Source of the DNA: a virus
Reading direction: 5' to 3' (one strand)
IMG/VR virus record: IMGVR_UViG_3300006310_000001
DNA length: 64,000 bases
The notes beneath the pieces are model-generated. The model was not told the origin of the DNA. It did no database searches and saw only the letters and a program-made list of their open reading frames with translations. Below are positions 5,582 to 28,377 of the stretch, piece after piece. The number at the start of each line of letters is the position of its first letter. Position 1 is the stretch's first letter. The translations under genes were made by a program, and so were the position numbers.

Positions 5582-5583
5582 TA

Positions 5584-8772: not shown

Positions 8773-8779
8773 AATTTTC

Positions 8780-10606: not shown

Positions 10607-10608
10607 AA

Positions 10609-11981: not shown

Positions 11982-12649
11982 TAGCTTGGTCCCATTTTAT
12001 CATCTTTATCTCCATAATGTAAATAAGACATCATAACATATTTTGGTCCACTAATTGGTTTTAATCCAGCGTGTGGATGAGTCCAAAAAGGTGGAAACAC
12101 TAACAATCTTGTTGCTCTTGGTGAAATCATTATATTCTGTTTTGGTAAATGTGTTTCACCGCCTTTTTCAACATCATTAAGATATAAAATAAAAACTAAA
12201 AAACGTTTTGCTGAAAGACCCCTAGAACGGAGTACATCAACGTGTTCTTTAAATTCATCTTTATCATTAGGTAAATATTTTTTTATTCTTATGTTTTCCC
12301 TATCAATTATTGGTGGAAAATGTTCATTTTTTATATTTAAATTCATCATATATCTTTCTTTATACAATTTCAACATATGAAGAAATTTATCTCTAGGTTC
12401 TTTCCAAAAGAGAAGGTTATCAGGTTTGTCTATATCAATTTCAGTAAATTCTTTATGACCAGTTTTAAATGCGTCTACACTAGATTTATTGTAGTTGGCT
12501 ATCTGTTCAAACTTATTAACAATCATTTTACAATCTTCCACGTCCATTGCGTGATTATACACCATCATATTATTCTTAGCAAATTCATCTAATGTAGATG
12601 TTGGCATATCTCTTAAACGTGAATTAAAATTAGGTTTAGTTTTGTCCAT
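11981..12649 (-). CDS. 2OG-Fe(II) oxygenase (prolyl-4-hydroxylase-like)
   Basis: EHVD (HxD), YLNDVEKGGET, FPPFWTHPHAG, KYVMMSY. Confidence 0.8.
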   Translation of the reverse strand: MDKTKPNFNSRLRDMPTSTLDEFAKNNMMVYNHAMDVEDCKMIVNKFEQIANYNKSSVDAFKTGHKEFTEIDIDKPDNLLFWKEPRDKFLHMLKLYKERYMMNLNIKNEHFPPIIDRENIRIKKYLPNDKDEFKEHVDVLRSRGLSAKRFLVFILYLNDVEKGGETHLPKQNIMISPRATRLLVFPPFWTHPHAGLKPISGPKYVMMSYLHYGDKDDKMGPS

Positions 12650-13049
12650 AACTACTCGGTGCCATAAATGTTCGTCTAACTATTGCTGCTTGTTCATCTT
12701 TAGTTTTAACATAATATCCTTCAATATGTGTATATCCATTTTCTTTTGCCCAATACACTCTCTTGTTGCCTGTATGTACTGCAATACCAGGTATAGGAAT
12801 TCCTGAATATGCGTCCTTCGGCCATCTTTTTTCTACTAACCAATAATACTTCATATTAGTATATATGATTGGATACATCATACCTAACCTATCTATACTT
12901 TTCTTAAATCTAGGATATCTTTTCATCATCCAATCATTATCAGCAGTTAACATTAAATTTTCTAATGGTACTTCTACTACTCTTGGAGTTACACCTACTA
13001 AAGGTTCATCTTTACAAGTAACTCTTTTTTTTGCTTTTAATAATTTCAT
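12636..13049 (-). CDS. ParB/Srx-like domain protein
   Basis: VVEVPLENL...SIDRLGMMYPI...HTGNKRVYWAKENGYTHI. Confidence 0.5.
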   Translation of the reverse strand: MKLLKAKKRVTCKDEPLVGVTPRVVEVPLENLMLTADNDWMMKRYPRFKKSIDRLGMMYPIIYTNMKYYWLVEKRWPKDAYSGIPIPGIAVHTGNKRVYWAKENGYTHIEGYYVKTKDEQAAIVRRTFMAPSSYGQN

Positions 13050-13363
13050 ACTTGTAATTCAAAAACATCAAATTCAATGCCTTCTAACTCTTTTGGTTTA
13101 CCTTTAGGATAAGTCGGCCAAAGTTGGAATTCTTCTCCAGTTGTATCACTTTTACAACCTGCAACTAACCAATCCCATTTAAATTCTCCGTCTATAATAA
13201 ACTCGTTCATCACTTCATATCTTCCATCTGGTTTTTGTAAAAGTAATTCTTTTTTACATTCTTCCATATTTTTATACCAACCTTCCATTTGGAAAGTTTG
13301 TTGTGTTTCTATTGGACTATGACCAATTAGATATGCTAATATTAATATTTTAAAGTCGCCCAT
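13046..13363 (-). CDS. hypothetical protein (105 aa)
   Basis: ORF coupled to neighbours. Confidence 0.65.
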   Translation of the reverse strand: MGDFKILILAYLIGHSPIETQQTFQMEGWYKNMEECKKELLLQKPDGRYEVMNEFIIDGEFKWDWLVAGCKSDTTGEEFQLWPTYPKGKPKELEGIEFDVFELQV

Positions 13364-13892
13364 AATTTGCCTTTGCTATATACCAACTATCAACTATGTC
13401 TGATACTGGATTGCCTGCTTTCGCTGTGTCTAATAGTTTCTTTAAATCTGTTTTTGTATCTTTACAAAATTGTTCGTACATCATTTCTTTATCTGCATTA
13501 CCTTTACCTGTAGCAAATTTCTTAACAACACTTGGTACAATAACATTATATTTCCATTTTTGTTCTAATAATCTATATTTAAGTATACCACAATTTTCTG
13601 CTATTTGAAATAGTGCTTGACCTTTAGAACCATAAGAATAGTTTTCTATTGCTATTGTAATCCCACCAGGTTGATATAAACGTAAAACTTTTAAAACCCA
13701 ATCAGAAATTTGAGTAAATCTTTGTATAGGGTCTGTCCACGGTTGATGTTCAGAACCATTTATATTTCCAAATACACCTAAATGTTTCTTTTTATTTGTA
13801 AGGAAATAAAAGCGACTATGCTCAAAAGTAAAGTCTTCTGTTACACATATTGCAGGACTTGTTAAACTATAATCAATCCCAACTTGTTTCAT
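13350..13892 (-). CDS. RuvC-like nuclease / resolvase
   Basis: GIDYSL, IAIENY, VVKKFATGKGNADKEMM, DIVDS acidic tetrad; start moved to MKQVGID. Confidence 0.8.
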   Translation of the reverse strand: MKQVGIDYSLTSPAICVTEDFTFEHSRFYFLTNKKKHLGVFGNINGSEHQPWTDPIQRFTQISDWVLKVLRLYQPGGITIAIENYSYGSKGQALFQIAENCGILKYRLLEQKWKYNVIVPSVVKKFATGKGNADKEMMYEQFCKDTKTDLKKLLDTAKAGNPVSDIVDSWYIAKANYGRL

Positions 13893-14055
13893 CTTCTTCT
13901 CCAATTTCATCTTCTTCATCATCCAGTTCATAACTACAAAATGGACACGACATAGGTTTCATATCTGTTTCTTCATCATCATATTTAATTGTAAATTTAG
14001 TCTTACAATTTCCACAGGTGGTCTCAAATTTCTTTATATCATCATTTAGATCCAT
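13873..14055 (-). CDS. small zinc-ribbon protein with acidic tail
   Basis: CGNC...CPFC. Confidence 0.7.
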   Translation of the reverse strand: MDLNDDIKKFETTCGNCKTKFTIKYDDEETDMKPMSCPFCSYELDDEEDEIGEEDETSWD

Positions 14056-14064
14056 TATATACTT

Positions 14065-15168
14065 TTACAATTTAAATTTCTTGAATTGATCCTTCTGTAC
14101 GTCTTGTTTAATTCCACCTATAACATAACTTTCAATTTCGGTCTCCTGTGGTGCATTTTGTAATGACCTACTATTTAACCAATGGTCAACCCAAGGTAAT
14201 GGATTTGTCTTTTGGTCATATTGTGGGTCTAATCCAATTGCTCTCATACGTCTATTTGCCATATACTCTACATATTGATGTAATAATTTTTCTGAAAGTC
14301 CTATCATAGAACCTTTTGAAAACAAATAAGTTGCCCAACGTTTTTCTTGATTAACTGCTCGTTCATACATTTTATAAACTTCTATTTGTGTATCTTTCAT
14401 TACCTTATTCATAATCTTATCATTTTCATTATCACGATAGTTATTAATTATTCTTTGTGATATTGATAAATGCAAACTTTCATCCCTTGCAATTAAAGAA
14501 AGTATTTTAGCAGAACCTTCTAACATCTTTAATTCTCCAAATGCAAACGAACAAGCAAAAGAAACATAAAATCTTAAACCTTCTAATATATTAACAGTCA
14601 TCAATGTTAAATATAGTTTCTTTTTCAACTCATACATATCAACACTATCTGGTGTTAATTGCCATTTATAACCTAAATTAATTAAATCATCATATGTTTG
14701 TGTTATACTAGTTGCCCTATTTTCAATCTTCTCATCTGTAACTATAGTATCAAAGATTTCACTAGGATTAGGATACAAATTCTTTATAATGTATGTATAT
14801 GAGTGTGAGTGTATGTTTTCAAAGAAGTCCCAAGCAATGACACAACTTTCTAATTCAGGTATTGAAACAAAAGGTAATAATGCCAACGCAGGACCTCTAC
14901 CTTGCACACTATCCATCATTGTTTGATATTTTATATTAGAAGTAAATATAAATTTACTTTGTTCATTTAATTCTCTATAATCTGCAATGTCTTTTTGTAA
15001 AGATACTTCTTCTGGTCTCCAAAAATAACCTAACTGTTGTTGAAACAGTTTATTAAAGATAGGATATTTTAATACATCATATCTTTGTACCTGTAAATCT
15101 TTACCAAAAAACATAGGTTGTTTGGTATAATCTAATTTTTTATCTATATTAAATACACTTTTAGTCAT
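14065..15168 (-). CDS. nrdB: class Ia ribonucleotide reductase beta subunit
   Basis: FWRPEEVSL, DSVQGR, ENIHSHSY, LEGLRFYVSF, RDESLH, APQETEIESY. Confidence 0.96.
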   Translation of the reverse strand: MTKSVFNIDKKLDYTKQPMFFGKDLQVQRYDVLKYPIFNKLFQQQLGYFWRPEEVSLQKDIADYRELNEQSKFIFTSNIKYQTMMDSVQGRGPALALLPFVSIPELESCVIAWDFFENIHSHSYTYIIKNLYPNPSEIFDTIVTDEKIENRATSITQTYDDLINLGYKWQLTPDSVDMYELKKKLYLTLMTVNILEGLRFYVSFACSFAFGELKMLEGSAKILSLIARDESLHLSISQRIINNYRDNENDKIMNKVMKDTQIEVYKMYERAVNQEKRWATYLFSKGSMIGLSEKLLHQYVEYMANRRMRAIGLDPQYDQKTNPLPWVDHWLNSRSLQNAPQETEIESYVIGGIKQDVQKDQFKKFKL

Positions 15169-15832
15169 TTATCGGTTCTAATTGTTCTTGCATTCTTTCT
15201 GATTCTGTTAATTCATAATGGTGGTCATCACTATCACCTGCTGTCCATTTACTTATATTATCTACACTATACTCTCTAGTAGATACTTTATAATCTGGTC
15301 TTTTTGGTTTACTAGGTGTTAATGATTTATCATAAAACAAAACTCTATTATTAGGTTGAGCAGCAAAATGCCCATTATCTAACTTTATTATGTTAAATGA
15401 TTTATGTTGAGAAGGAGTTTCACTATACCCTACATTATTTTCTTTATTCGTTGCACAACAACTATCTATACTAAACATATAATTGCCTTCATATAATTTC
15501 TTACTTGGTGATAGAAACGTACATCTATTGCCACTTACTAATTGTTTCTGTATAATAGTAATATCATAATCAAAACAATCCCATAACTGTAATTCTGGTA
15601 ATGCTATATCTTCTTTTGTTTCTTTCCATACAAAAGCATTTATAGGCAACTTATCATATAGTGCTCCTGTTTCATACAAATAAGTTTCAAAATATAATGC
15701 TCTACCTTGAATACTTTTAACAGTACACCAGATACCTGGTTCAAACTCTCCGTGACCTTTTTCTAAATCATAAAGGTATTGTTTTTTAACTAGTACTTCC
15801 GTATGTGGTACATTTGCACATAAAAATGCCAT
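15161..15832 (-). CDS. hypothetical protein between nrdA and nrdB
   Basis: Long ORF; resembles a marine-phage family from memory (YLYDLEKGHGE, LYDKLP, FAAQPNNR). Confidence 0.75.
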   Translation of the reverse strand: MAFLCANVPHTEVLVKKQYLYDLEKGHGEFEPGIWCTVKSIQGRALYFETYLYETGALYDKLPINAFVWKETKEDIALPELQLWDCFDYDITIIQKQLVSGNRCTFLSPSKKLYEGNYMFSIDSCCATNKENNVGYSETPSQHKSFNIIKLDNGHFAAQPNNRVLFYDKSLTPSKPKRPDYKVSTREYSVDNISKWTAGDSDDHHYELTESERMQEQLEPIND

Positions 15833-15841
15833 AAAGTTCCT

Positions 15842-18157
15842 TTAAATTACGCAGGTTTCACATTCTTCTTCGTCTTTTTTCTCCATTATAGTTTTTGTTT
15901 CTGGCACATCATCTTTCCAACCAATAGGGTGTACAGGTTCCTCTATATCTCTTTTACTATCATATGTATTCTGATAATAGGAAGTCTTCCATCCTAATTT
16001 ATAAGTTGTTAATAAATCTTCCGCCATTATTGATAAAGGTATTTCTCCTTCATCATAATTTTCAGGATTATACGACCAATTACCACTAATTGATTGGTCA
16101 AAGTATTTCTGCATTACTGCTACTATGTTTATATATCCTTCGTTAGATTTCATATCCCATAACAATGTATAATTATTTTTCAATTTTTTATAATCAGGTA
16201 CAACTTGTTTTAAAGTACCTTTCTTACTTTTCTTAACTGAAATATAGTCCCTAGGTGGTTCAATGCCGTTTGTGGCATTACAAACCACGCTAGAGCTTTC
16301 AGAAGGCATTTGAGCTGTGAGTGTGCTATGTCTTAACCCAAATTCCTTAATATCTTTCCTCAAGTCTTCCCATTTATAAGATAGTTTCCTAGATACAATC
16401 TCATCAACTTCTTTTTTATAGGTGTCTATTGGTAAGATACCGTCTGAATACTTTGTTTTAGAAAAGGATTCACATTTGCCCTTTTCTTTTGCTAATTCAT
16501 TACTTGCTCTTAATAGATAATATTGGAATGCTTCTGATAACTTGTCTACTTCTTTACAAGCAGTTTTAGTTTCATAACCAACTCCTAGTGTCGCTAAGTA
16601 ATGAGCAAGACCAATATATCCAATTCCTAAACTTCTTCTATTTCTTGTAGAAATTTCTGCCGCTTTAACTGGATATCTTTGATGGTCTATAACTTCGTCC
16701 AATGACCTTACTGCTAAATCGCATAAGGATTCTAATTCATCTAAATCTTTTAAAAGTCCTACATTAATTGCTGATAATATACACAATGCAATTTCTCCAT
16801 TACCATCTATATGACTTATAGGTGTTGTTGGTAATGTTATTTCTTGACATAAGTTAGACATATAAATTCTATCTTTAAAAGAGGAGTGAGTATTACAATG
16901 GTCTATATTCATAATGTAAATACGACCTGTTTCTGCTCTTTCTTTTAAAATTGCCATAAACAAGTCCTGTGCTTTAAGTTTAGTTTTCCATACACTTGTT
17001 TTTCTTTCTGCCGTTTTATATATTTCATCAAATTCTTTTGTTCCCCACGCTTCATAAAGTTCTGGTACTTCGTGTGGTGAAAATAATGTTATCTCTTCAT
17101 CATTAATAAATCTTTCATAAAATAATTTAGATAACTGTATAGAGTAGTCTAATTTTCTTACTCTATTATCTTCGCTACCTTTATTATTTTTTAATACAAT
17201 AATATCTTCTATTTCTTTGTGCCAAATAGGAAAGTGAACGGTTGCCGAACCTCCTCGTACCCCATTTTGAGTACAACACTTAACAGTTGCTTCAAATTTT
17301 TTAAGAAAAGGAATAACGCCAGTATGTTGTACTTCGCCACCTCTAATACGTGAGTTGATTCCTCTAATTCTTCCTGCATTGATACCAATACCTGCTCTTT
17401 GGGCAACATACTTGCCAATGGCCATATCACTAGAAAAGATACTAGGCAAAGTATCATCAACATCCACCAACACACAACTCGCATACTGCCTAATAGGAGT
17501 TCGTACACCAGCCATAACAGGTGTTGGAATATTAATTTTAAAACGTGAAATAGCGTCATAATACTTTTTAACATAACTCATCCTTTTGTTTTTTGGGTAT
17601 TGTGAAAATAATGTAGCAGATATCATCATATACATAAATTGTGGCGTTTCATAAATTTGTCCTGTACTTCTATCTTGCACTAGATACTTGTCTATGACTT
17701 GTCTTAAACCTGCATATGTAAAAGTATAATCTCTTTCGTGATTTAACCAATTTTCCATTCTATCAAAATCTTTTTTGTCATACCAATTTAAAATTTCTTT
17801 ATCATAGACGCCTTTGTCTATACCATTTTGTACGTGTTGAAAAATATGTGGATGATCCCACATTTTATGAAATAGTTGTTTTCTTAAACTATAGAGTAAT
17901 AGTCTAGCGGCAACATATTGATAATTTGGATTTTCTAAAGTGATTAAATCGTTTGCTGATTTAATTAAGATTTGTTGAATTTCGTTTGTTGATATGCCAT
18001 CATAAAATTGTAGACCACTATTCATTTCTACAGAAGAAGCAGAAACTTGCGTTATATCTTCACACGCATATTCTACCATTTGATGTATCTTCTCAATGTT
18101 TAGAGATTCCTTACCTCTACCATTTCGTTTCACCACACTAATATTTTCATTCACCAT
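15842..18157 (-). CDS. nrdA: class Ia ribonucleotide reductase alpha subunit
   Basis: ATP cone, PTPVMAG, ASCV, SNLCQEI, MPSESSS, KTSYY, C-terminal CETC. Confidence 0.97.
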   Translation of the reverse strand: MVNENISVVKRNGRGKESLNIEKIHQMVEYACEDITQVSASSVEMNSGLQFYDGISTNEIQQILIKSANDLITLENPNYQYVAARLLLYSLRKQLFHKMWDHPHIFQHVQNGIDKGVYDKEILNWYDKKDFDRMENWLNHERDYTFTYAGLRQVIDKYLVQDRSTGQIYETPQFMYMMISATLFSQYPKNKRMSYVKKYYDAISRFKINIPTPVMAGVRTPIRQYASCVLVDVDDTLPSIFSSDMAIGKYVAQRAGIGINAGRIRGINSRIRGGEVQHTGVIPFLKKFEATVKCCTQNGVRGGSATVHFPIWHKEIEDIIVLKNNKGSEDNRVRKLDYSIQLSKLFYERFINDEEITLFSPHEVPELYEAWGTKEFDEIYKTAERKTSVWKTKLKAQDLFMAILKERAETGRIYIMNIDHCNTHSSFKDRIYMSNLCQEITLPTTPISHIDGNGEIALCILSAINVGLLKDLDELESLCDLAVRSLDEVIDHQRYPVKAAEISTRNRRSLGIGYIGLAHYLATLGVGYETKTACKEVDKLSEAFQYYLLRASNELAKEKGKCESFSKTKYSDGILPIDTYKKEVDEIVSRKLSYKWEDLRKDIKEFGLRHSTLTAQMPSESSSVVCNATNGIEPPRDYISVKKSKKGTLKQVVPDYKKLKNNYTLLWDMKSNEGYINIVAVMQKYFDQSISGNWSYNPENYDEGEIPLSIMAEDLLTTYKLGWKTSYYQNTYDSKRDIEEPVHPIGWKDDVPETKTIMEKKDEEECETCVI

Positions 18158-18173
18158 TTTTATTTACACACTC

Positions 18174-19169
18174 CTAACATTTCTTATAATAGTTTAATTT
18201 TGTTAACGCTTCTAATTTGCTAAAGGTATTATTACTTATGATATCTCTCAACTCGCTTATTTTCATTCCATTCATTATCATTTCATTTACATCTTTAAGT
18301 TGTACGTCATTTGGCCAGACTACTACGTTATAATTTTTTTCAATTACAGCGTACATCCTTTTTATGATTTCTTTATTACGAGGTTCGTTATCAAATATAT
18401 ATGTAACTTGGTCACTTGACACTCTCAATGTTAAGTCAGCACCACCTGCTGCTAAACAATTATCTAAAAACAAACTATCAAGTGGACCTTCAACTATGTA
18501 AATATGTTTTTGAAAATTTACACGTTCAAGTCCATATACTTTTTGTTTTGTTTCATCAAGTTTAATAGTAATATATTTTGGTTGTTCTTTTCCAAATGCT
18601 CTGCCTTGGAATGCAAACAACGTACCAGTTACGTCAAAGAAAGGAATTATTAATCTAGGGTGTTCATAACGTTCTTTAAAAGTCCCTGGTTTCACTTTAT
18701 TAGCAAAATTGTGAAATTTGTCAACAAAATAAATTATCTCATAATATTGTGGAGGTATCAATCTCTTTTTTACGTAATCCTTTACAGGATGTCCGTCTTT
18801 TAATGTACTTACTTTAATACAAGAATCTAATAAATTTGTTTCTTTAAATTTTGTTGGTTTAAAGTCAAATTTCGGCTGGGGCGTGGATGGTGCCGATCCT
18901 TTGTATCTCTCTAATAAGTATTCTCCGTATTTTTTGGGATCCAAGAATTTAATGAAATTTGCTAAATTCTGACCCATACCACAATTGTGGCATTTGAAGA
19001 ACATATCATTTTTTACTCTATAAAGATATGCCCTTGCTTTTGTTTTACTCTTCTGCGAGTCTCCACAATGTGGACACCTAAAATTGAAAAGATAATCTGT
19101 CTTCTTTTTAAACTGGCTTAATGCTGAAGAAATGGCATTAATATACTTTAAATCTATATAACTTGACAT
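18174..19169 (-). CDS. 61: DNA primase (T4 gp61)
   Basis: FRCPHCGDS...FKCHNC zinc finger, VEGPLDS TOPRIM, FDNEPRN. Confidence 0.95.
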   Translation of the reverse strand: MSSYIDLKYINAISSALSQFKKKTDYLFNFRCPHCGDSQKSKTKARAYLYRVKNDMFFKCHNCGMGQNLANFIKFLDPKKYGEYLLERYKGSAPSTPQPKFDFKPTKFKETNLLDSCIKVSTLKDGHPVKDYVKKRLIPPQYYEIIYFVDKFHNFANKVKPGTFKERYEHPRLIIPFFDVTGTLFAFQGRAFGKEQPKYITIKLDETKQKVYGLERVNFQKHIYIVEGPLDSLFLDNCLAAGGADLTLRVSSDQVTYIFDNEPRNKEIIKRMYAVIEKNYNVVVWPNDVQLKDVNEMIMNGMKISELRDIISNNTFSKLEALTKLNYYKKC

Positions 19170-19182
19170 AACACTATCTCAT

Positions 19183-19211
19183 AATATACACCATATCACA
19201 AAAAAAGTCAA
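19183..19211 (-). promoter_or_regulatory. sigma70-type promoter TTGACT-N17-TATATT
   Basis: Upstream of primase. Confidence 0.75.
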
Positions 19212-19235
19212 GTCTGTACACGAAAACCTGGTGAC

Positions 19236-19266
19236 AAAAAAATACCCAGGCTATTTTCCTCGGGTA
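19236..19266 (-). terminator. intrinsic terminator closing the curli/FecR operon
   Basis: UACCCGAGG-AAAAUAG-CCUGGGUA followed by U7. Confidence 0.7.
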
Positions 19267-19284
19267 AAAGGTAAGAGTTTTCTA

Positions 19285-19713
19285 TCAGCTCAGCATCTTC
19301 AAAATATGCTCAAAATTACCTGCTACTATCCATCCTATTACTATAGCAGCACCTAATATAATCCATCTATATTTTTCTAATACACCAACTCTAACACCAA
19401 TAGCATTGTAAACTGTTTTAATCTCTAGTAATAAACGTCTTTCAGTTTGTTCTATTTCTCTAGTTAAATCTCTACGTATATTGTCTATTTCACCTGCACG
19501 TTCTTTTAACTTTTCAAATATAACTTCGTCAATTTGTTCTTGTCTATTGATTTTTTCTGAATGGACTGCCAACATAGACTTAATAGATGTTGATACATCT
19601 GTTAATTTGTCTATTGCTGTGTCTAAACGGTTGTGAATTCTATCAAATTCTTCAACGTCTTTTTTGAGTTTAGCAATATCTACTTTTGTTTTAATTCCGT
19701 TATTTTCGTCCAT
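19285..19713 (-). CDS. coiled-coil protein with C-terminal TM helix
   Basis: Heptad-rich body, YRWIILGAAIVIGWIVA anchor. Confidence 0.75.
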   Translation of the reverse strand: MDENNGIKTKVDIAKLKKDVEEFDRIHNRLDTAIDKLTDVSTSIKSMLAVHSEKINRQEQIDEVIFEKLKERAGEIDNIRRDLTREIEQTERRLLLEIKTVYNAIGVRVGVLEKYRWIILGAAIVIGWIVAGNFEHILKMLS

Positions 19714-19805
19714 TAGAAATCTCTATCTATCCACTTGTAAATACTCCAATTCATATAGAGTAATAGACCCATTATTAACCAAAAATTAATTGTTCCCCAA
19801 TCCAT
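19713..19805 (-). CDS. 30-aa single-TM microprotein (MDWGTINFWLIMGLLLYMNWSIYKWIDRDF)
   Basis: Not in track; TAATG-coupled at both ends. Confidence 0.65.
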   Translation of the reverse strand: MDWGTINFWLIMGLLLYMNWSIYKWIDRDF

Positions 19806-19936
19806 TATACGTTTCTCCATTGTGTTGGCAACCACCATTCGGTGTACCAATGTTTAAATTGTGCTGGATTTCTGCCCATAATAAAAATACACCAAAATCC
19901 TTTTATTAATTCCTTTATTGCTATTAACCTACTCAT
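19805..19936 (-). CDS. 43-aa Trp-rich microprotein (MSRLIAIKELIKGFWCIF...)
   Basis: Not in track; TAATG-coupled at both ends. Confidence 0.6.
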   Translation of the reverse strand: MSRLIAIKELIKGFWCIFIMGRNPAQFKHWYTEWWLPTQWRNV

Positions 19937-22056
19937 TAATCCGTTTGTATGATTGTAATATTTTCTTGGCTGGAACTGCTGCCAATATCAATGTGTTGTG
20001 CTTCTTTATCTTGTAAAATTTGAACGTCTGCCTCGTCAGCAGTTTCAATTTTTAAATAAGCACGGTGGTTGTCATTATATCTATTTATAATTGAGTAGCC
20101 GCTAACAGACGTATCAACATCAGCGTCATAAGTGTTGCTACCTGTTGTATATCTTCCTGTTAATGTTTCAGAAGTTTTTACATCACCTTCTGTTGTTGTA
20201 GTAGTTTGAGTAATATCTCCTGTGGTGTAATTTAATATTTCACCACTAGTTGTTGTTGTCGTTTCTGATTTTGAATTGTCAACCCATTCTGTTCCACAAG
20301 AAGCATTTGCTTTGTCCCAATAGTATCCCCAATTAACACAATCATTTTCATTATCTATATCTGCTAACCATAATTCTAATTCAGCGTCTATGTCATAATC
20401 ATCCTCATAACTATATTCATCTTCCAATGTTGTAGAATCATCTCCTGTATCATCATATGAACCTGTGTACCACCAACTAGATGTATTGTCATAAAATTTT
20501 TGCCAATCTGAATTGGTCCATTCAGAAACATATTTGTCTTTTAAACTTGCCATCTTCCAAGGTTTAGGTTGTCCAGAACACCACTCTGGTTTGTCCCAAG
20601 TACCACACCAACCATACCATTTTTTAAATAATTTTCTAGCTCCTTTTTCCCAACTATCATAATCTTTAAACAATGTCCAATCGTCTTCGTACCAAGCGTT
20701 TAAATAATCTATATAACTCTGGTTACACCAAGATGTATCCCAACCATTATAATCACAATAGTTTTCTATTGTTAACGTTGGTGGTCCACCTGCCGCTATG
20801 TAATCTGCATTATTATAATATTCATTTGATAAATCAAAATCTTCCCAAGTGTATCCAACAACTGTTGATGTTGCTTCTTCTTCAACTGTTTCAGTTACAT
20901 CTTCTTCCTTTACATCATAAGAAGTTAATCCATATTTTTCTAACGTATCATTATACTCATCATAATAAGCATCCCAATCAACTTTATCCCAATCAACCTC
21001 TTCCCAATTAATAGTATCCCAAGTACAATCTGAGCAACCTATTGCGTCAAAGTATGCTTGATCCATTTCAGCGTACATAGTTTTAGCTGTATCCCAATCC
21101 ATTTTCTGTTCACCAGTAGCATCCCATACTGATATTTGATTATCTTCATCAATGTATCCCCAATCTTTTAAATCTTCTTCCCATTCATCATAATAAGAAG
21201 TATCAACTTCCGATTCTTTTCCTGCTTGGTCTACTGCTGATTCTTCATAACTATAACTATCATCACTTCCAGAAGTACCTAAATCGGAAGTAGTGTCATA
21301 TGTATCATATGTTTCTGTAATTGAACTCTCTTCAGAAATAATAGCTTCTTCCATTTTTTGTAATTGTTCATTGTTTTCTGCTCTATCAAATTGTTGGTCG
21401 TGTTTCTTTTTTATATCATCATCAATACTATCAATATCAAACAAATTCTTTTTCTGATTGTTATCCAATGCTGATGGAGTTTTAATCATAACATCTGAAC
21501 CAACTACAGTTACAGAAGTGTATACGTTAGTTAATGTTTGAGAACCTGCGTCATTGGTTACGGTTACTTGTCCTACATCACCAGAACTATCTGGAAGTAA
21601 TGTAATTGTTGTTTGACCTGAAGTATCTACTGTACCTGAAAAGGCAGTACCTTGCATAGTTATAGTTGCTGTTGGTGTAACTAATTCAACCTCACCACCT
21701 AATTTTTTTACATCTCCTGATTCATATGTAAATGTACCAACATTAATTGATATGTTCATTGCAATTTCAATTGGTATAACAGACGTATCAAAAGCAAATT
21801 CATCAATGATTAATTCTGTATTCGGACCCATTGTAAATTTAGTATCATCTTTATAATGTAAAATCATTCCACCATCTTCTCCTGTTTGGAGAAAATCGTT
21901 CATTTCTAATAGGTAACCTTTAATTACTTCTTCGGTACGTCCATCTCTTTCGTTCCAAGTTTGACCCATTTTATCAAAAACAGAACCAATAGTAACTGCT
22001 AATGCTTGTGTAGTAAATAGTATCAGAAACGATACTATGAATAAAAGTTTTTTCAT
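19936..22056 (-). CDS. exported FecR-domain protein with long acidic Trp/Tyr-rich extension
   Basis: Signal peptide; LQTGEDG..FTMGPNTEL..VTPTATITMQGTAF FecR-type fold; C-terminal ITIIQTD. Confidence 0.8.
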   Translation of the reverse strand: MKKLLFIVSFLILFTTQALAVTIGSVFDKMGQTWNERDGRTEEVIKGYLLEMNDFLQTGEDGGMILHYKDDTKFTMGPNTELIIDEFAFDTSVIPIEIAMNISINVGTFTYESGDVKKLGGEVELVTPTATITMQGTAFSGTVDTSGQTTITLLPDSSGDVGQVTVTNDAGSQTLTNVYTSVTVVGSDVMIKTPSALDNNQKKNLFDIDSIDDDIKKKHDQQFDRAENNEQLQKMEEAIISEESSITETYDTYDTTSDLGTSGSDDSYSYEESAVDQAGKESEVDTSYYDEWEEDLKDWGYIDEDNQISVWDATGEQKMDWDTAKTMYAEMDQAYFDAIGCSDCTWDTINWEEVDWDKVDWDAYYDEYNDTLEKYGLTSYDVKEEDVTETVEEEATSTVVGYTWEDFDLSNEYYNNADYIAAGGPPTLTIENYCDYNGWDTSWCNQSYIDYLNAWYEDDWTLFKDYDSWEKGARKLFKKWYGWCGTWDKPEWCSGQPKPWKMASLKDKYVSEWTNSDWQKFYDNTSSWWYTGSYDDTGDDSTTLEDEYSYEDDYDIDAELELWLADIDNENDCVNWGYYWDKANASCGTEWVDNSKSETTTTTSGEILNYTTGDITQTTTTTEGDVKTSETLTGRYTTGSNTYDADVDTSVSGYSIINRYNDNHRAYLKIETADEADVQILQDKEAQHIDIGSSSSQENITIIQTD

Positions 22057-22424
22057 TTCTGAAACACCTCATCTAAATCATTATAAAACGATTGTTTATC
22101 TGCATACCCTATTATTCTTGTTAATTCTTTTCTACCATTCCATATTATAAATGTTGGTGTTCCTCTAATAGGTTTAATTCTTCCTTCAGCATATGCTTCT
22201 TTAAACCAGTTAGGTTGATTATATAAATTAATAATAACTAAAGGTAAATCTTCATACTCATAGTCAACTCCTACCTCTTGTAAAAAGTTTTGGCATATAC
22301 CACACATAGGATTGTGTGCCATTAATAATTCATTTGCTTTCGCTGATGATATGCCTAATATTAATAATACAGTAACACAAATTATTATTGCCCACTTTTC
22401 CCAAGTGTTGTGAAATAGTTTCAT
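22053..22424 (-). CDS. exported thioredoxin-fold protein (SoxS-like)
   Basis: Signal/TM segment, CGIC, GTPTF, RIIGY. Confidence 0.75.
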   Translation of the reverse strand: MKLFHNTWEKWAIIICVTVLLILGISSAKANELLMAHNPMCGICQNFLQEVGVDYEYEDLPLVIINLYNQPNWFKEAYAEGRIKPIRGTPTFIIWNGRKELTRIIGYADKQSFYNDLDEVFQK

Positions 22425-22552
22425 TTAAATTTCTTCTTCTTTTCTTTTCTTTTCCATTTTTCTGGATAGTAATTGTGGATTAGTGTACAGATTATGCCAC
22501 CTGATAAACATATTGTACCAAATATTAAAAAGAAAGCGACAAACCCTTTCAT
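22421..22552 (-). CDS. 43-aa TM microprotein with basic tail
   Basis: Not in track; MKGFVAFFLIFGTICLSGGIICTLI...KRKRKKKKFK fills the gap exactly. Confidence 0.6.
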   Translation of the reverse strand: MKGFVAFFLIFGTICLSGGIICTLIHNYYPEKWKRKEKKKKFK

Positions 22553-23641
22553 TTAACACCCGCCAGTTATCGTATTAGTATAATCTGCTGTTTGATTGTT
22601 TCTGTTATATGAATAGGTACAACTATCATTACCGTCTTGATTCACGTGTAAAGTATAGTCGTATATTGAATCACCTGATACATAAAGATAAGCATAGTTG
22701 TCATCATTAAGTTGTTTAAGGTTAACAATTGCGTCATCTGTATAGATATAAACTTTTGCTACATTATCATCACCATTTGCATAGTAAGTAAATGTATTAT
22801 CGTTTCCAACAGTAACCGTTTTCATCCAATTGTCATCACCTCTTTGTATCATTCTTACGTGACTACCTGTGCAACAGGAGTGAACATCTAAAATATTTGA
22901 ATCACCTATGATATCGTGAACTTGGTAGTTACTTTCGCCCCAAATTCCTGTGTGTACTCTATTAGAATTTCCTATAATGTAAAAATCTATTGTTGCACCT
23001 TCACTACCTGAATCATCTGCAAAGATTCCGTGAGAAGCAACATCTGGACCTATCATTATATTTGCCTTGTCAGAACCAACCATACCTTTTGATTCTGCTC
23101 TGTTACTATAAAATTCTACATCATTTGAATCTCCATTAATCAATACATATAAGAAGTGTGAATCACCGTGAGAATTCATCCAAAAATCATTTGAGTCTCC
23201 TACAATATCTAAATCAAGGTGTGTATCCTGTACATCATCACTTGTATTTGTATCTATCTCTACTATGTTTGATGAACCTGTAATATCAATGTCATAATAG
23301 TGTCCATCTGCGCCTACATCATCTAAATCTAATCTTAATACATTGGAACTACCTACAGCATAATAATCAAAGGTCATATTAGAACCCATAAATGCTCTAT
23401 GGTTGCTATCTTTAGCAACATTATTGTCACCTATTTGTTTAATTATAAGAGTAAGATTTGGTCCGTTGACTAAAAAAGGATATGATGTGCTTAACCCAAC
23501 CATATTACCAGTACCATCTTGTTTGATGTAGATGGAACCATCATCATCTTGGTTAACTTGCCAAATATATACTGAATTTCCTGCTAGACAATTAATCGTT
23601 GTCGCTAGAAGAATCACTAGAGCCATTATCATTTTCTTCAT
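22553..23641 (-). CDS. exported curlin-like repeat protein (CsgA/CsgB-like)
   Basis: Signal peptide plus about a dozen GxxN-type repeats (QDGTGN, QIGDNN, VGSSN, TGSSN, VGDSN, NGDSN, IGNSN, IGDSN, RGDDN, NGDDN); next to csgG. Confidence 0.7.
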   Translation of the reverse strand: MKKMIMALVILLATTINCLAGNSVYIWQVNQDDDGSIYIKQDGTGNMVGLSTSYPFLVNGPNLTLIIKQIGDNNVAKDSNHRAFMGSNMTFDYYAVGSSNVLRLDLDDVGADGHYYDIDITGSSNIVEIDTNTSDDVQDTHLDLDIVGDSNDFWMNSHGDSHFLYVLINGDSNDVEFYSNRAESKGMVGSDKANIMIGPDVASHGIFADDSGSEGATIDFYIIGNSNRVHTGIWGESNYQVHDIIGDSNILDVHSCCTGSHVRMIQRGDDNWMKTVTVGNDNTFTYYANGDDNVAKVYIYTDDAIVNLKQLNDDNYAYLYVSGDSIYDYTLHVNQDGNDSCTYSYNRNNQTADYTNTITGGC

Positions 23642-24590
23642 TTGTGTTCTCCTTTTCTTTTAACTCGTCTTGAATCTTTTTCTTACGTTCTTCTTTTTGG
23701 TTTTCTTTTTCTAATAGATAATCTTCGTATGTTTTCTCTACATTAGGTTCTTGTTGTTCTATAACTACTTCAACCTTTTCTTCTGTAATGACTTCTGCGT
23801 CTGACTCTTCAACAATAACTGGCTTTTCAATTTCCCATAAGCCTTTTTCGTCACCTTCTTTTATCAATTCTACTATACCTTTTTCTATTGCTTTTCTTAC
23901 TGCAAAGGTAACAGGTTCATTTCTTGCAACACCAACCTCTAACTCTAATAACAATGTATCAGCGTCAAAGTATTTGAATATATCTCCACCAGTTTCACCT
24001 GAAATTATAGTTTTCTCAACTACTATTGATATTACTACTTCACCAGTTTGTACATTAACTAATCTTAAAATAATAGTAACTACATCTTGTCGCCATTGTT
24101 TATGTGCTTGAATGCCTAAAATTCTTGCACCATAACCGCCTGTCTTTACATCACTATCATAACCTATAATTCCACCTGTAAGATATGCACCTGCAAACAA
24201 TAGTGGAGGTAAAGATTGTGCTTTATCACCATCAACTTGTTGTCTTGTAGAACGTATTAATTTTCGTTCTTGTAATAGACTTGGCAAACTTGCTCGTTCT
24301 ACTACTCTAAACCATTTGCCATCGCCTGCGTCTTGTAATGCTTTAATTAATATTTGATATGCACCTTGAGTTACTGCCGTACTCATTGTTGCATAATTGC
24401 CACCTGGTTTCTTTTGACCAGTTAAATCCATAAAATCATACACAGCAATTACAACAGGTTCACCGACAGGTGATTCTATTGTAGTTAAATTTTTAACTGC
24501 TGGTATTTGTTTTCTAACATCAAAGTCTGGCTTACCTGCACAACTAACTAACAATAATGTTAACAAAAATATTGCTATACTTCTAAACAT
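23592..24590 (-). CDS. csgG: curli secretion channel CsgG-family lipoprotein
   Basis: Lipobox LVSC, AVYDFMDLTGQKKP, STAVTQG, WFRVVER..L..ER..IR, GGIIGYD. Confidence 0.9.
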   Translation of the reverse strand: MFRSIAIFLLTLLLVSCAGKPDFDVRKQIPAVKNLTTIESPVGEPVVIAVYDFMDLTGQKKPGGNYATMSTAVTQGAYQILIKALQDAGDGKWFRVVERASLPSLLQERKLIRSTRQQVDGDKAQSLPPLLFAGAYLTGGIIGYDSDVKTGGYGARILGIQAHKQWRQDVVTIILRLVNVQTGEVVISIVVEKTIISGETGGDIFKYFDADTLLLELEVGVARNEPVTFAVRKAIEKGIVELIKEGDEKGLWEIEKPVIVEESDAEVITEEKVEVVIEQQEPNVEKTYEDYLLEKENQKEERKKKIQDELKEKENTNEENDNGSSDSSSDND

Positions 24591-25042
24591 TAATCTTCCT
24601 TCGGCATAGTAAATGTCGTTACTGTTCCATCCGTTTCAGTAACAGTCACTACTACGTTACCTGTTCCTGAAGGTGTTGTCCACTCAACAAGTTCTCCACC
24701 AATTGGTGATGTAAATGAACCTGTATCTTGTTGTAGACCATCAGCACCAAATATATTTGTTGTAATTTGTTTTGCTAGTGCTGTATAGAACCTTGATTCT
24801 AAATTTGCTTTGAATTTTGCTACTGCTGTATTTTTAGCATCCTCTTTGACTTTATCAGCCGCTGCTTTTTCAGCTGCTTTTATAGCGTCTTTACGAGTCT
24901 TCTCTATATTTTCTACAGTTAAATAGTGTGATGATTTTCCTTCCCCACTAAAGGATGGACTATCAAATTTAAATGTTAATTCACTTGCATTTGCTATAGA
25001 ATATAATGATAATACTGCTAATATTGTAATGATTATTCGCAT
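24590..25042 (-). CDS. csgF: curli assembly protein CsgF-like
   Basis: Signal peptide then ELTFKFDSPSFSG; directly upstream of csgG. Confidence 0.8.
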   Translation of the reverse strand: MRIIITILAVLSLYSIANASELTFKFDSPSFSGEGKSSHYLTVENIEKTRKDAIKAAEKAAADKVKEDAKNTAVAKFKANLESRFYTALAKQITTNIFGADGLQQDTGSFTSPIGGELVEWTTPSGTGNVVVTVTETDGTVTTFTMPKED

Positions 25043-25065
25043 TTTCCTTCTCTCTTTGATGTATA

Positions 25066-25073
25066 TATTTATA
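25066..25073 (-). promoter_or_regulatory. T4-type late promoter TATAAATA
   Basis: Exact consensus 24 bp upstream of csgF. Confidence 0.75.
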
Positions 25074-25097
25074 AGATATCTGTACTAAATAGTACGT

Positions 25098-26753
25098 ATG
25101 ATTAAAATATTGACGAAAACGTGGGCAGTATATTTGACGTTGATTATATTACTTGGAATATATATATCAAATCCTATCTTGCTACAGTCAGCAAAACTAA
25201 ACACCTTTGATTTCTACCAAACATTTGGTAAGAATTATGAATCCAAGAGTTTAGTACTAGTAGACATATCAGACAAAGCATTAGAAAAGAATGGGCAATG
25301 GCCGTGGAAGAGAGATTTACTTGGTCGTGTCATAATCAATGCATATAAAAATGGTGCCGCTCTTGTAGTTCTGCAAGTAGTCTTCCCACATAAAGATAGA
25401 TTAGGTGGTGATGAAATGTTTTTGAAAATGATTTCAAAATATCCAATCATACTTACTGAAACCGATACTGTAAAAAATCTTATTAGTATCTCACGTAAAG
25501 CAATAGCAATAGGTAATGTATCTGCACCAGTTGATATAGATGGCACTATAAGAAAACTACCTCTTGATAAATCCATACCTGAAGTTATCTTAAAAGTTAT
25601 TAATGCAAAAACTTTAGCAGAAGATACTATTTGGATTGATTTCAGACATAATATTCCTAGAATAGATTACACCGATAAAGATTGGTCATCTGTAAAAGGT
25701 AAAATAGTTTTCATAGGTACAACATTCCAAGGTTCAACATTTGTTACTACTCCTAATGGATTAAAAAACACACACGAAATTATGGCAATCAGTACAGAAA
25801 CTTTATTGTCAGGTAATTTTATTAGTAGACCTTATTGGTTACCATATAGTGAATTTGCTTTTATACTATTAGGTGCTCTATTCTTTCTCATAGTTATACC
25901 TAGATGTGGTGTAATGTGGTCTGCGATATGGTTTGGTGGATACTTATTTGATTTAACACTTGCAAGTTCTTATCTATGGACGCAACACTTAATCATAACT
26001 GATTGGTTCAGTCCACTTGTAATAGGGTCTGTAATATGGGGTCAGTTAACATACAATAACTATTCAAAAGAAAATAAATTAAGACTACAAATTAAGAAAC
26101 AATTTGAACACTATCTATCTCCAGATATGGTTAAGAAACTACAAAAGAATCCATCTCTATTAAAACTTGGTGGTGAAAGAAAAGTAATGACGTTTTTGTT
26201 TTCAGACATACGTGGCTTTACTCCTATATCGGAATCTATGAAAGGTAATCCAGAAAAACTTACCAAGTATGTTAATAAGTTCTTGACTGTAATGACTGAT
26301 ATAATATTAAAAAATGGTGGTACTATTGATAAGTATATGGGTGATTGTATAATGGCATTTTGGAACGCACCCCTAGACAATCCAAATCATCAAAGACTAG
26401 CAGTACTATCTGCATCCCAAATGAAAAAAACAGTTGAAGAAATGAATAAGAGTGGAGAGTTTGACCCACCTTTAAAGATTGGTATAGGTATCAATACTGG
26501 TGAGTGTCTTGTAGGTAATATGGGGTCTGAACAACGTTTTGATTATTCTGTTATTGGTGACGCTGTTAATTTGGCAAGTAGATTGGAAGGTAAGAGTAAA
26601 GATTTTGATACTACAATAGTAATATCTCAACATACTGCTGAAGGTATTGACTTTGTTCCATTGGCAAGACCAGATGGATTTAAATTCTATAAACTAGGTA
26701 TCTCTACTGTAAAAGGTAAAAAAGAAAAGGTTAATTGTTTTTCTATTAAATAA
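25098..26753 (+). CDS. CHASE2-domain membrane adenylate cyclase (class III)
   Basis: N-terminal TM, GQWPWKR CHASE2, 3 TM helices, FSDIRGFT, DKYMGD, FDYSVIGDAVNLASRLE. Confidence 0.92.
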   Translation: MIKILTKTWAVYLTLIILLGIYISNPILLQSAKLNTFDFYQTFGKNYESKSLVLVDISDKALEKNGQWPWKRDLLGRVIINAYKNGAALVVLQVVFPHKDRLGGDEMFLKMISKYPIILTETDTVKNLISISRKAIAIGNVSAPVDIDGTIRKLPLDKSIPEVILKVINAKTLAEDTIWIDFRHNIPRIDYTDKDWSSVKGKIVFIGTTFQGSTFVTTPNGLKNTHEIMAISTETLLSGNFISRPYWLPYSEFAFILLGALFFLIVIPRCGVMWSAIWFGGYLFDLTLASSYLWTQHLIITDWFSPLVIGSVIWGQLTYNNYSKENKLRLQIKKQFEHYLSPDMVKKLQKNPSLLKLGGERKVMTFLFSDIRGFTPISESMKGNPEKLTKYVNKFLTVMTDIILKNGGTIDKYMGDCIMAFWNAPLDNPNHQRLAVLSASQMKKTVEEMNKSGEFDPPLKIGIGINTGECLVGNMGSEQRFDYSVIGDAVNLASRLEGKSKDFDTTIVISQHTAEGIDFVPLARPDGFKFYKLGISTVKGKKEKVNCFSIK

Positions 26754-26835
26754 ATGTTAATATCAAATAACAACTTAACCCTATAACTATTCCTAATACT
26801 GCAACAACACCTGCTAAGGTATATATTGTCTTCAT
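26746..26835 (-). CDS. 29-aa single-TM microprotein
   Basis: Not in track; MKTIYTLAGVVAVLGIVIGLSCYLILTFI; ATGA-coupled; 3' end overlaps cyclase stop. Confidence 0.55.
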   Translation of the reverse strand: MKTIYTLAGVVAVLGIVIGLSCYLILTFI

Positions 26836-26996
26836 TTTTTGTCTGTTAACTTATTAATAAGTTCAAACGCTACTTTAACTTTCTCTTCCAACACTTTAAT
26901 TCTATAGTGTGATTGTGCTAAAGTAACTATCAATAACACAAATGCTACTAGCATCGGCCAAAGTCTACTCAACATTAATACTGCTTCACTATCCAT
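26832..26996 (-). CDS. 54-aa TM plus short coiled-coil protein
   Basis: Not in track; MDSEAVLMLSRLWPMLVAFVLLIVTLAQSHYRIKVLEEKV...; coupled both ends. Confidence 0.7.
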   Translation of the reverse strand: MDSEAVLMLSRLWPMLVAFVLLIVTLAQSHYRIKVLEEKVKVAFELINKLTDKK

Positions 26997-27181
26997 TACT
27001 GTACTATTTCATCTCCTGTTTTTACATTGGGTCTTGGTTTCTCACAAACAGAACAATCACATTTACTACAAATAATAGTTACTGTCTTTTGATTTCGTAA
27101 TCCATCTGGACTAGAAGTAATATACTCCATTAACTTTTCAGGACAATGAGCTTCCCTACCACAATTTTTACATTTTTCCAT
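26996..27181 (-). CDS. small Cys-rich putative zinc-binding protein
   Basis: CKNCGREAHC...CSKCDCSVC. Confidence 0.7.
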   Translation of the reverse strand: MEKCKNCGREAHCPEKLMEYITSSPDGLRNQKTVTIICSKCDCSVCEKPRPNVKTGDEIVQ

Positions 27182-28377
27182 TACTTTTTAAACTTTGTTG
27201 CCTCTTCTGAACCGCCTGTTGCTGTTCCTTTTGTATAAGAATGAGCACCCATACCTGCAAGGTCTCCATCTTTAACAATTAAATATTGATTTCTTATTTC
27301 TGTTCCATCAAATAAACACTCTAGTATTTCTCTTACACCAGCAGCATATCTTGTTTGTGCTGATAGTGAAGTACCTGAAGTGTGTGGTGTCATACCGTGG
27401 TTAGGCATTGTTCTCCATACGTGGTCATTAGGTGCTGGTTGTGGAAACCATACATCACCTGCATAACCGCTTAATTGTCCTGACTCTAATCCTCTAGCAA
27501 CAGCATCCTTATCACAAATTTTTCCTCTTGCTGTATTAATTATGTACGCACCTTTTTTGCACTTACTAATTAAATCATCATTAAACATATGTTCAGTTTC
27601 AGGATGTAAAGGACAACTTATATTAATCACATCACATACTGCAACTAACTCCTCAACTGAATTGTGATATATTAAATTTAATTCTTTCTCTTTATCTTCT
27701 GGCAATCTATGCTTATCAAAGTAATGTAGGTGTACATCAAATGGTTTCATCTTTCTTAACATATCATAACCTATACGTCCAGCAGCAATTGTACCTATAT
27801 GCATACCTTCTACGTCATAAGAACGTTTAACTGCGTCAGCTATATGCCAACCACCTTCGTTAACTATTCTATGTTGATTATGATAATCTCTAACTAGTGC
27901 TAGTATCATCATAACAATATGTTCTGCAACACTTCTACTATTACAATAAGTTACTTCAACTACATCAACTTTATGATCCATAGCCGCTTGTAAATCTACG
28001 TGGTCTGAACCAATACCTGCTGTAATTGCCATCTTTAAATTTGGAGCACTCTCTATTCTTTTTCTATTTAAATAGTACGGCCAGAATGGTTGTGATATGA
28101 CTACATCTGCGTCAACTAGTTCTTTATCTGCAACGCAACCATCTGCGTCTTTATCAGAAGTAACTACTAACGTATGTCCTGCGTCTTCTAAAAACTTTCT
28201 TAATCCTAATTCACCTGACACACATCCTAATAAATCACCTGGTCTAAAATCAATACCCTTTGGTGTAGGTAGTGTCATTCCATCTGGATACTTTTCTAAT
28301 TTTGGTAAGTCTTTGACTGGATATGATTTTGGCATTCCATCTTTAGGGTCGTCATATAATATACATAATATTTTCAT
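27181..28377 (-). CDS. fdh: NAD-dependent formate dehydrogenase (metal-independent)
   Basis: LGCVSGELGLRKFLE, SQPFWP, TAGIGSDHVD, AAGRIG, YFDKHR, NTARG, VWFPQPAP, PHTSG, GAHSY. Confidence 0.95.
   Translation of the reverse strand: MKILCILYDDPKDGMPKSYPVKDLPKLEKYPDGMTLPTPKGIDFRPGDLLGCVSGELGLRKFLEDAGHTLVVTSDKDADGCVADKELVDADVVISQPFWPYYLNRKRIESAPNLKMAITAGIGSDHVDLQAAMDHKVDVVEVTYCNSRSVAEHIVMMILALVRDYHNQHRIVNEGGWHIADAVKRSYDVEGMHIGTIAAGRIGYDMLRKMKPFDVHLHYFDKHRLPEDKEKELNLIYHNSVEELVAVCDVINISCPLHPETEHMFNDDLISKCKKGAYIINTARGKICDKDAVARGLESGQLSGYAGDVWFPQPAPNDHVWRTMPNHGMTPHTSGTSLSAQTRYAAGVREILECLFDGTEIRNQYLIVKDGDLAGMGAHSYTKGTATGGSEEATKFKK

Follow-up and report, generated by a model that had tools for sequence, protein, structure and literature searches.

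The stretch examined here is a 64,000-nt window of viral DNA (IMG/VR record IMGVR_UViG_3300006310_000001), within which positions 19236-25073 hold a minus-strand run of genes built around csgF, csgG and a curlin gene. The window is AT-rich (~31% GC), nearly all of its genes lie on the minus strand, and its weak DNA matches to the Pelagibacter phages HTVC008M and Mosig point to a T4-like marine myophage of the pelagimyophage type. A sequence-only reading of this DNA had described a late operon for a curli-like secretion system, and every element that it listed, from the late promoter through csgF, csgG, a G-x-x-N repeat protein, a membrane microprotein, an exported thioredoxin, a FecR protein, two further microproteins and a coiled-coil membrane protein to the terminator, lies where it had been placed (Table 1). 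The genes are also as tightly coupled as that reading held, with junctions that abut or overlap by 1-4 nt and a 50-nt overlap between csgG and the start of the curlin gene. Together with a divergently oriented cyclase gene, the genes for CsgF, CsgG, the curlin and a FecR-domain protein make up the T8SS (type VIII secretion system) module already published for marine phages of the SAR11 and OM43 type, here in a variant with a single curlin. Signal peptides are present on all products of the module except the cyclase.

For comparison, 49 related loci were fetched from IMG/VR by way of their CsgG, and the window proteins were mapped onto them with tblastn. Related viral loci carry labels of the type L001-L049 below; L010 is the G001 phage, L050 is HTVC008M, and L053 is a Caulobacteraceae metagenome-assembled genome (MAG). 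The curlin alignment (A1) holds 21 family members, and the homologue set for the FecR-domain protein holds 15.

Table 1. Features of the module and its borders, listed from the cyclase gene to the downstream boundary (window coordinates; ORF, open reading frame)
Feature	Position	Strand	Basis or remark
CHASE2 sensor adenylate/guanylate cyclase, 551 aa	25098..26753	+	Pfam CHASE2 1.3e-26 (residues 15-262), Guanylate_cyc 5.4e-22 (residues 364-550)
T4-type late promoter, TATAAATA	25066..25073	-	exact match, 24 nt before the csgF ATG
csgF, T8SS outer cap/chaperone, 150 aa, signal peptide	24590..25042	-	Pfam PF10614 1.5e-13; phrog_35372 2e-34
csgG, outer-membrane lipoprotein pore, 332 aa	23592..24590	-	Pfam PF03783 5.6e-49; NCBIfam CsgG 3.6e-49
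CsgA-type curlin, 362 aa, signal peptide, ~12-13 strand-turn-strand repeats	22553..23641	-	profile and structure
Membrane microprotein, 43 aa, variable insert	22421..22552	-	hydrophobic N-terminus, basic tail
Exported thioredoxin-fold protein with CGIC, 123 aa, variable insert	22053..22424	-	Pfam Thioredoxin_2 4.2e-6
Exported FecR-domain protein, 706 aa	19936..22056	-	Pfam matches of homologues; model against FecR/PupR domains
Internal TATAAATA in the 3' end of the FecR gene	20082..20089	-	possible late promoter for downstream genes, or by-product of Ile-Ile-Asn codons
Two overlapping micro-ORFs	19805..19936 and 19713..19850	-	ORF list, tblastn
DUF7201 coiled-coil protein, C-terminal membrane helix	19285..19713	-	Pfam DUF7201 6.3e-15
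Intrinsic-terminator-like hairpin	19236..19266 (approx.)	-	8-bp bulged stem and U7
Sigma-70-like early promoter, TTGACT-17-TATATT	19183..19211	-	precedes the primase-like gene; downstream boundary

The curlin subunit and its secretion pore

The components of the pore are readily assigned. The CsgF match spans positions 2-132 of the 132 in the Pfam profile, and the csgF stop codon overlaps the start of csgG. Over residues 5-257, CsgG matches the solved structures of E. coli CsgG at 3e-46; its N-terminus ends in an LVSC lipobox, and its C-terminal tail is variable and rich in acidic and basic residues. Both a CsgG lipoprotein pore and a csgG-linked CsgF, as known from T8SS loci, are found here.

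The secreted subunit with curlin repeats is found as well. The 362-aa protein contains 12 G-x-x-N motifs spaced 11, 22 or ~25 residues apart, and the fuller Q-x-G-x-x-N signature is seen in its first two repeats and in its last. Nine of the 21 A1 members match Pfam Curlin_rpt with E-values of 0.01 or lower (best 4.5e-7, 30.1 bits), more distant relatives from an exhaustive search also score above the Pfam threshold, and many of the >300 close metagenome relatives carry precomputed PF07012 matches. The A1 profile has a sole significant match among PDB sequences, E. coli CsgA 8enq (6.1e-5), and the NCBIfam CsgA model matches residues 218-318 at 2.5e-5. A single-sequence phmmer search of the protein against PDB sequences gave nothing useful. 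An exhaustive search of representatives returned 40 relatives, mostly fragments of the same family together with a few distant curlin-repeat proteins. Among phage proteins, identity to the curlin is 30% for HTVC008M gp016, annotated as CsgB (BLASTP 1e-9), and 27% for Melnitz gene 103. With phmmer, gp016 and gp018 of HTVC008M gave nothing at E 1 or better against the six frames of the window.

The AlphaFold2 model (predicted local distance difference test, pLDDT, 74; predicted template modelling score, pTM, 0.77) consists of a row of ~12-13 strand-turn-strand units. In an exhaustive structural comparison with VIA-align, its best match is the CsgA of Pontibacter korlensis (8c50; Z 25.8 over 277 residues, 23% identity). 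The next match stands 7.7 Z below, at Z 18.1, and other beta-helices reach Z <=18 with identities of <=12%. Where a locus reaches far enough, csgG is always followed by a full-length curlin gene, and its ~360 codons are kept intact across lineages that are 36-88% identical. The repeat protein is a CsgA-type curlin. The curli-like system with a curlin-like subunit that had been read from the sequence is in this respect borne out by profiles and fold, and the structure prediction that had been named as a check on it yields the strand-turn-strand model whose closest relative is a CsgA.

The late promoter and the extent of the module

As in a T4-type late unit, an exact TATAAATA stands shortly before the first gene and is kept among relatives. 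Of 31 distinct upstream regions from related viral contigs, 27 have it ~30 nt before csgF, whatever stands further upstream, and three of the remaining four carry CATAAATA at the same place. The raw number of copies by itself proves nothing: the window contains nine, all on the minus (coding) strand, with 17.6 expected on both strands from dinucleotide shuffles. This motif is thus about half as frequent as the shuffles predict, which suggests its avoidance where it is unused. The late promoter noticed in the sequence-only reading is accordingly a conserved one, and the sequence lends good support to the predicted late expression of the module.

At the downstream end, the hairpin and U7 tract that had been taken for a terminator are present. 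The folding z-score of the hairpin is only -0.81, and a consensus terminator scan did not report it; the hairpin and T-run are kept in the closer relatives L017, L019 and L024, with changes on both sides of the stem. A separate early promoter follows, and TTGAC(T/A)-17-TATA(T/G)T is kept before the primase-like gene in all related loci examined, which gives a clean boundary between early and late genes. A single 5.8-kb transcript is plausible. The internal TATAAATA has counterparts in many relatives, where TATAAATA or CATAAATA ([T/C]ATAAATA) occupies the equivalent site in the 3' end of the FecR gene and coincides with Ile-Ile-Asn codons.

Five genes form the constant set in the 49 IMG/VR loci, namely those for CsgF, CsgG, the curlin, the FecR protein and the CHASE2 cyclase. 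Wherever a viral locus extends far enough, the cyclase gene adjoins the module. It is divergent and upstream of csgF in some loci, as in the window, where it is the sole sizeable plus-strand gene; in others it has the orientation of the FecR gene and comes right behind it (L016, L028, L030, L032, L034, L039, L047). Because it flanks the module so constantly, the cyclase is part of it. The unit is therefore not self-contained as first described: the divergent cyclase belongs to the conserved module, and the DUF7201 gene probably does not. The latter always adjoins the primase-like gene, is absent from the modules of HTVC008M and Melnitz, and is preceded by a TATAAATA of its own, 14-29 nt away, where the cyclase gene comes between it and the FecR gene (L030, L039); it is probably a neighbouring late backbone gene. 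In the two micro-ORFs, the widely conserved part is the last ~30 codons of the 45-aa ORF, a ~30-aa membrane peptide. On the far side of the module, just beyond the cyclase, the window carries an intact gene for an NAD-dependent formate dehydrogenase (27181-28377, minus strand; NCBIfam PRK07574 4.5e-196, above cut-off).

Alignment of window 15625-27188 with 5391-17128 of the near-identical phage L010 reveals a recombination mosaic. DNA identity is 96-100% over the cyclase gene, the 43-aa ORF and thioredoxin gene, the micro-ORFs and DUF7201 (96-99% for these last two), and the primase-like and nrdA genes, whereas csgF and csgG are 75-86% identical, the curlin gene 61-66% and the FecR gene 62-82%. 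The exported parts behave as exchangeable alleles or cassettes that evolve much faster than their surroundings.

The arrangement is also found in a bacterial genome. In the Caulobacteraceae MAG L053 (2992-10084), the order on a single strand is csgF-csgG-curlin-curlin-FecR-CHASE2 cyclase; the surroundings are bacterial, at 52-65% GC, with glycosyltransferase, peptidase and TonB receptor genes on the flanks. The L053 CsgG groups with phage CsgGs, apart from those of seven other alphaproteobacteria (97/93 support; long branches), and the T8SS loci of these seven have no FecR or cyclase gene within 9 kb. L053 may be donor or recipient.

The FecR-domain protein, the CHASE2 cyclase and the inserted genes

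The 706-aa protein comprises a FecR-like beta domain (~50-185), an acidic linker, a Trp/Tyr/Cys-rich domain (~283-535) with eight conserved Cys, and a beta-rich C-terminus that ends in ITIIQTD. The protein itself has no Pfam match, and phmmer against PDB sequences gave nothing useful. Nine of its 15 homologues match Pfam FecR (best 3.4e-8), and Foldseek of its model finds the periplasmic domains of the anti-sigma proteins 4m0h and 4m0n and of PupR 6ovk at 1e-4 to 8e-4 with probability 1.00; the pTM of the whole model is 0.28, and the match is for the FecR-like domain only. Residues 6-239 are 29% identical to HTVC008M gp017. The protein thus carries a periplasmic FecR domain (PF04773 fold). A cleavable-looking signal peptide stands directly before this domain, with no N-terminal cytoplasmic anti-sigma domain, and because that part is lacking the protein shares the FecR domain but is not a FecR regulator. 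The acidic Trp/Tyr/Cys-rich domain has no recognisable relative.

The length of 706 aa might have come from fusion of a FecR protein to a second curlin, but we rejected this: in the short HTVC008M FecR protein it is the very end that aligns with the C-terminal motif, and the extra ~350 residues are therefore an internal insert. Nor did profiles show a curlin repeat at the C-terminus: hhalign of the two families aligned their signal peptides only, and the last 110 residues of four FecR proteins had no Curlin_rpt match in Pfam. An h-x-h-x-Q-x-[D/N] ending is common to the FecR proteins of three distant modules and to several curlins (ITIIQTD, ITINQTN, INVTQD, IDIIQRD, ATVTQN and ITITQ; from window 19939-19965, L050 gp017, gp016 and gp018, and the FecR protein and second curlin of L053). 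This shared ending is an observation at the level of a motif, and homology is without profile support.

The cyclase joins a periplasmic CHASE2 sensor domain and membrane helices to a class III catalytic domain, and its bacterial homologues are 30-44% identical. A FecR-domain ORF stands beside the related cyclase in ~20 of 80 bacterial loci, in several of them directly upstream and on the same strand, and in the Burkholderia BiofilmReg operon a FecR protein is paired with a CHASE2 kinase (PMC5192318). FecR and CHASE2 genes are on this evidence a native pair. Of FecR domains in general, a survey of 401 alphaproteobacterial genomes showed no more than that they are common.

Two genes are inserted between the curlin and FecR genes. 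The thioredoxin-like protein has a thioredoxin fold with a CxxC motif and a signal-like N-terminus; its Thioredoxin_2 score is marginal (27.5 bits against a cut-off of 27), and its nearest Atlas clusters are Thioredoxin_2, some of them viral. The sequence-only reading had suggested that this protein handles the Cys pairs of the curlin and FecR proteins. Those pairs are conserved in all relatives, but the complete thioredoxin gene is found only in L001/L002, where it is identical to that of the window, and in L010/L011. Since only this minority has the gene while all relatives keep the Cys pairs, the thioredoxin is an accessory and not a requirement. In L003 (7173-7262) and L024-26 (L024 7477-7566), the first ~30 thioredoxin codons are fused in frame as the signal peptide of the FecR protein, which looks like a deletion scar from which the rest of the thioredoxin gene was lost. 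The 43-aa ORF was found by tblastn in four lineages only (L001/L002, L010/L011, L007 and L017/L018) and has no family match.

Proposed function and comparison with known systems

SAR11 and OM43 belong to the ocean's most abundant bacteria, and to our knowledge they carry no genes for curli. By installing a pore and a fibre subunit, a phage would give the infected cell a new surface property, with possible effects on aggregation, superinfection and carbon export, an idea already in the literature. Overall, a late T8SS module that combines a pore, an exported curlin and FecR/CHASE2 sensing is very probably the best explanation of the locus. This reading rests on sequence, namely on the gene identities, the signal peptides, the lipobox, and the conservation of the module and of its late promoter; secretion, fibres and cyclic AMP (cAMP) are predicted. 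Late in infection, CsgG would form an outer-membrane pore in a host without curli genes, and CsgF would cap it. The ~13-repeat curlin would be exported unfolded, would then fold, and would probably stack into beta-solenoid fibres on the infected cell. The FecR protein and the cyclase are most likely a periplasmic sensor pair that converts a cue from the envelope or the outside into cAMP; in bacteria, CHASE2 sensors have FecR-domain proteins as partners. The thioredoxin-like protein, where present, may aid disulfide formation in the Cys-bearing exported proteins. Candidate purposes of the fibres are cell aggregation ("sibling capture"), shielding from superinfection and receptor masking. The surface amyloid for aggregation, exclusion or tethering that had been proposed from the sequence repeats published hypotheses (PMC7029224, PMC9599517).

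Several observations weigh against this reading. The window curlin itself falls below the Pfam Curlin_rpt cut-off (15.8 vs 20.7 bits), Foldseek found nothing in the PDB for its model at E 0.001 or better, and the alignment to 8c50 has a high root-mean-square deviation (rmsd) of 8.8 Å. The curlin-family profile finds one curlin gene only in the 64-kb window, and likewise one in the nearest 90-kb record; a second gene to serve as CsgB nucleator is not seen. Pfam and NCBIfam show no CsgE or CsgC/CsgH family match among the cluster ORFs. The constriction loop of CsgG aligns with that of E. coli, but its Tyr/Asn/Phe residues are replaced. The internal TATAAATA may start a second transcript, and in the hands of Buchholz et al. 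Melnitz-infected cells did not visibly clump (PMC9004378). Finally, the non-repeat loops of the curlin (190-205, 255-262) and its conserved C-terminal Cys pair (C341, C362) could mean a capped solenoid that does not polymerise.

Such a capped protein would be a monomeric beta-solenoid, exported to the periplasm or the cell surface, and would act as an adhesin, receptor mask or decoy, with FecR and the cyclase sensing export or an outside cue. The loops and Cys pair, the lack of a CsgB-type nucleator among the cluster ORFs and in the 64-kb window, the cassette divergence of the exported proteins, as expected in a surface arms race, and the absence of clumping with Melnitz are all consistent with it. 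However, the first and last repeats keep Q-x-G-x-x-N, the best fold match is a fibre-forming CsgA, and CsgA homologues with many repeats are known, so that we consider a capped solenoid unlikely. Less probable still is that the CsgG/CsgF pore is itself the product, serving lysis timing in a pinholin- or secretin-like manner or solute uptake, with the curlin as a plug or leftover. This was proposed for Melnitz and the pelagimyophages (PMC9004378, PMC7029224), and both late expression, which fits a role in lysis, and the constriction-loop residues that differ from E. coli CsgG agree with it. Both papers assumed that there was no curlin gene, though. The lysis idea loses weight with the conserved, full-length curlin gene that stands after csgG in all loci of sufficient length and that is annotated in Melnitz too. 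Moreover, CsgG sits in the outer membrane, which is not the site of holins, and a relic would not keep ~360 codons across such divergent lineages.

A further alternative concerns the transcripts and not the export system. The 5.8 kb may comprise two late units, one from csgF to FecR and another, unrelated to curli, in which the micro-ORFs and DUF7201 are transcribed from the internal TATAAATA. The separate TATAAATA of DUF7201 where the cyclase intervenes, the recurrence of [T/C]ATAAATA at the 3' end of the FecR gene, the near-identity of DUF7201 and the micro-ORFs to L010, which the T8SS genes do not share, and the absence of DUF7201 from the HTVC008M and Melnitz modules argue for it. Against it, the window has no terminator between the FecR gene and DUF7201, so that read-through is likely, and the internal motif may merely reflect the Ile-Ile-Asn codons; we regard the odds as even. 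We also offer, tentatively and as an idea that we think unlikely, a surface device coupled to signalling, as opposed to a plain producer of fibres: the FecR protein, whose terminal motif recurs in several curlins, would sense or dock on the curlin or pore and switch the cyclase through CHASE2, and cAMP would report or control late export. The module would have been captured en bloc from an alphaproteobacterium, since the six-gene arrangement exists in at least one Caulobacteraceae genome. Its exported parts swap as allelic cassettes between phages that are otherwise near-identical; such swapping would indicate an arms race on the cell surface, for instance over the exclusion of competing phages.

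Much of this system is on record. Zaragoza-Solas et al. (2020) described csgF and csgG with unidentified neighbours in pelagimyophages, as the sequence-only reading had correctly stated, proposed "sibling capture" and stated that CsgA/B were not found (PMC7029224). Buchholz et al. (2022) stated that Melnitz is without csgA/B and proposed a pore for lysis timing (PMC9004378). Wittmers et al. (2022) reported CsgA/B-type curli repeat proteins, FecR and adenylate cyclase in podo- and myo-pelagiphages, found the genes to be global and transcribed in metatranscriptomes, noted that CsgE is lacking, and discussed aggregation, superinfection defence and uptake (PMC9599517). In GenBank, HTVC008M gp016 is a "curlin-associated protein / CsgB", and Melnitz genes 101 and 103 are each a "curlin associated repeat protein", on either side of a FecR gene and ahead of a cyclase. 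The finding is already known, because the curlin, FecR and cyclase were published in 2020-2022 and stand in the GenBank records. Added here are the structural and profile support for the subunit as a true curlin of the CsgA type, the late promoter kept among relatives, one bacterial locus that has the phage-type arrangement in full, the native pairing of FecR with CHASE2, and the recombination mosaic of the exported parts.

The window resembles the published pelagiphage and methylophage module in its five-gene set, clustered in a T4-like marine phage with a host type that lacks curli genes. HTVC008M (gp014-019) and Melnitz (genes 99-104) share the order csgF-csgG-curlin-FecR-curlin-cyclase, with two curlins that flank FecR, whereas the window has one 362-aa curlin before FecR. 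Its FecR protein is 706 vs ~368 aa by virtue of the acidic Trp/Tyr/Cys-rich insert, its cyclase gene is divergent, the thioredoxin-like and 43-aa genes are inserted between curlin and FecR, and the module adjoins the primase-like and nrdA genes where theirs adjoins an ssb gene. The second curlin of HTVC008M, gp018 (L050 3682-5007), has a PA14 domain (2.7e-6) as well as five curlin repeats (5.2e-8), in keeping with a role in adhesion; a PA14 curlin of this kind has no counterpart in the window.

With the csgBAC/csgDEFG operons of E. coli, the phage module shares the CsgG lipoprotein pore, a full-length CsgF and a secreted subunit of strand-turn-strand repeats on G-x-x-N, in part Q-x-G-x-x-N. 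It differs in that no CsgB, CsgC, CsgD or CsgE was found among the cluster ORFs, in having ~13 repeats vs 5, and in its altered CsgG constriction residues, its phage late promoter and its linkage to FecR and a cyclase. The curlin is similar to P. korlensis CsgA 8c50 in length and repeat number; the rmsd of 8.8 Å reflects a differing twist or curvature or an imprecise model, and the phage protein adds the two loops and the C-terminal Cys pair. The FecR protein, which unlike true FecR is without the cytoplasmic anti-sigma part, recalls the bacterial FecR/CHASE2 pairs such as Burkholderia BiofilmReg (PMC5192318), in which an exported FecR-domain protein likewise stands beside a membrane sensor with a periplasmic CHASE2 domain. 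The phage output is, however, a class III cyclase and not a histidine kinase, and the phage FecR protein has a large extra domain and no LysM. A bacterial counterpart of the arrangement is that of L053, which has the same gene set on one strand, with a cyclase only ~34% identical to that of the window, two short curlins, and a gene of the PycTM family (Pycsar effector) after the cyclase.

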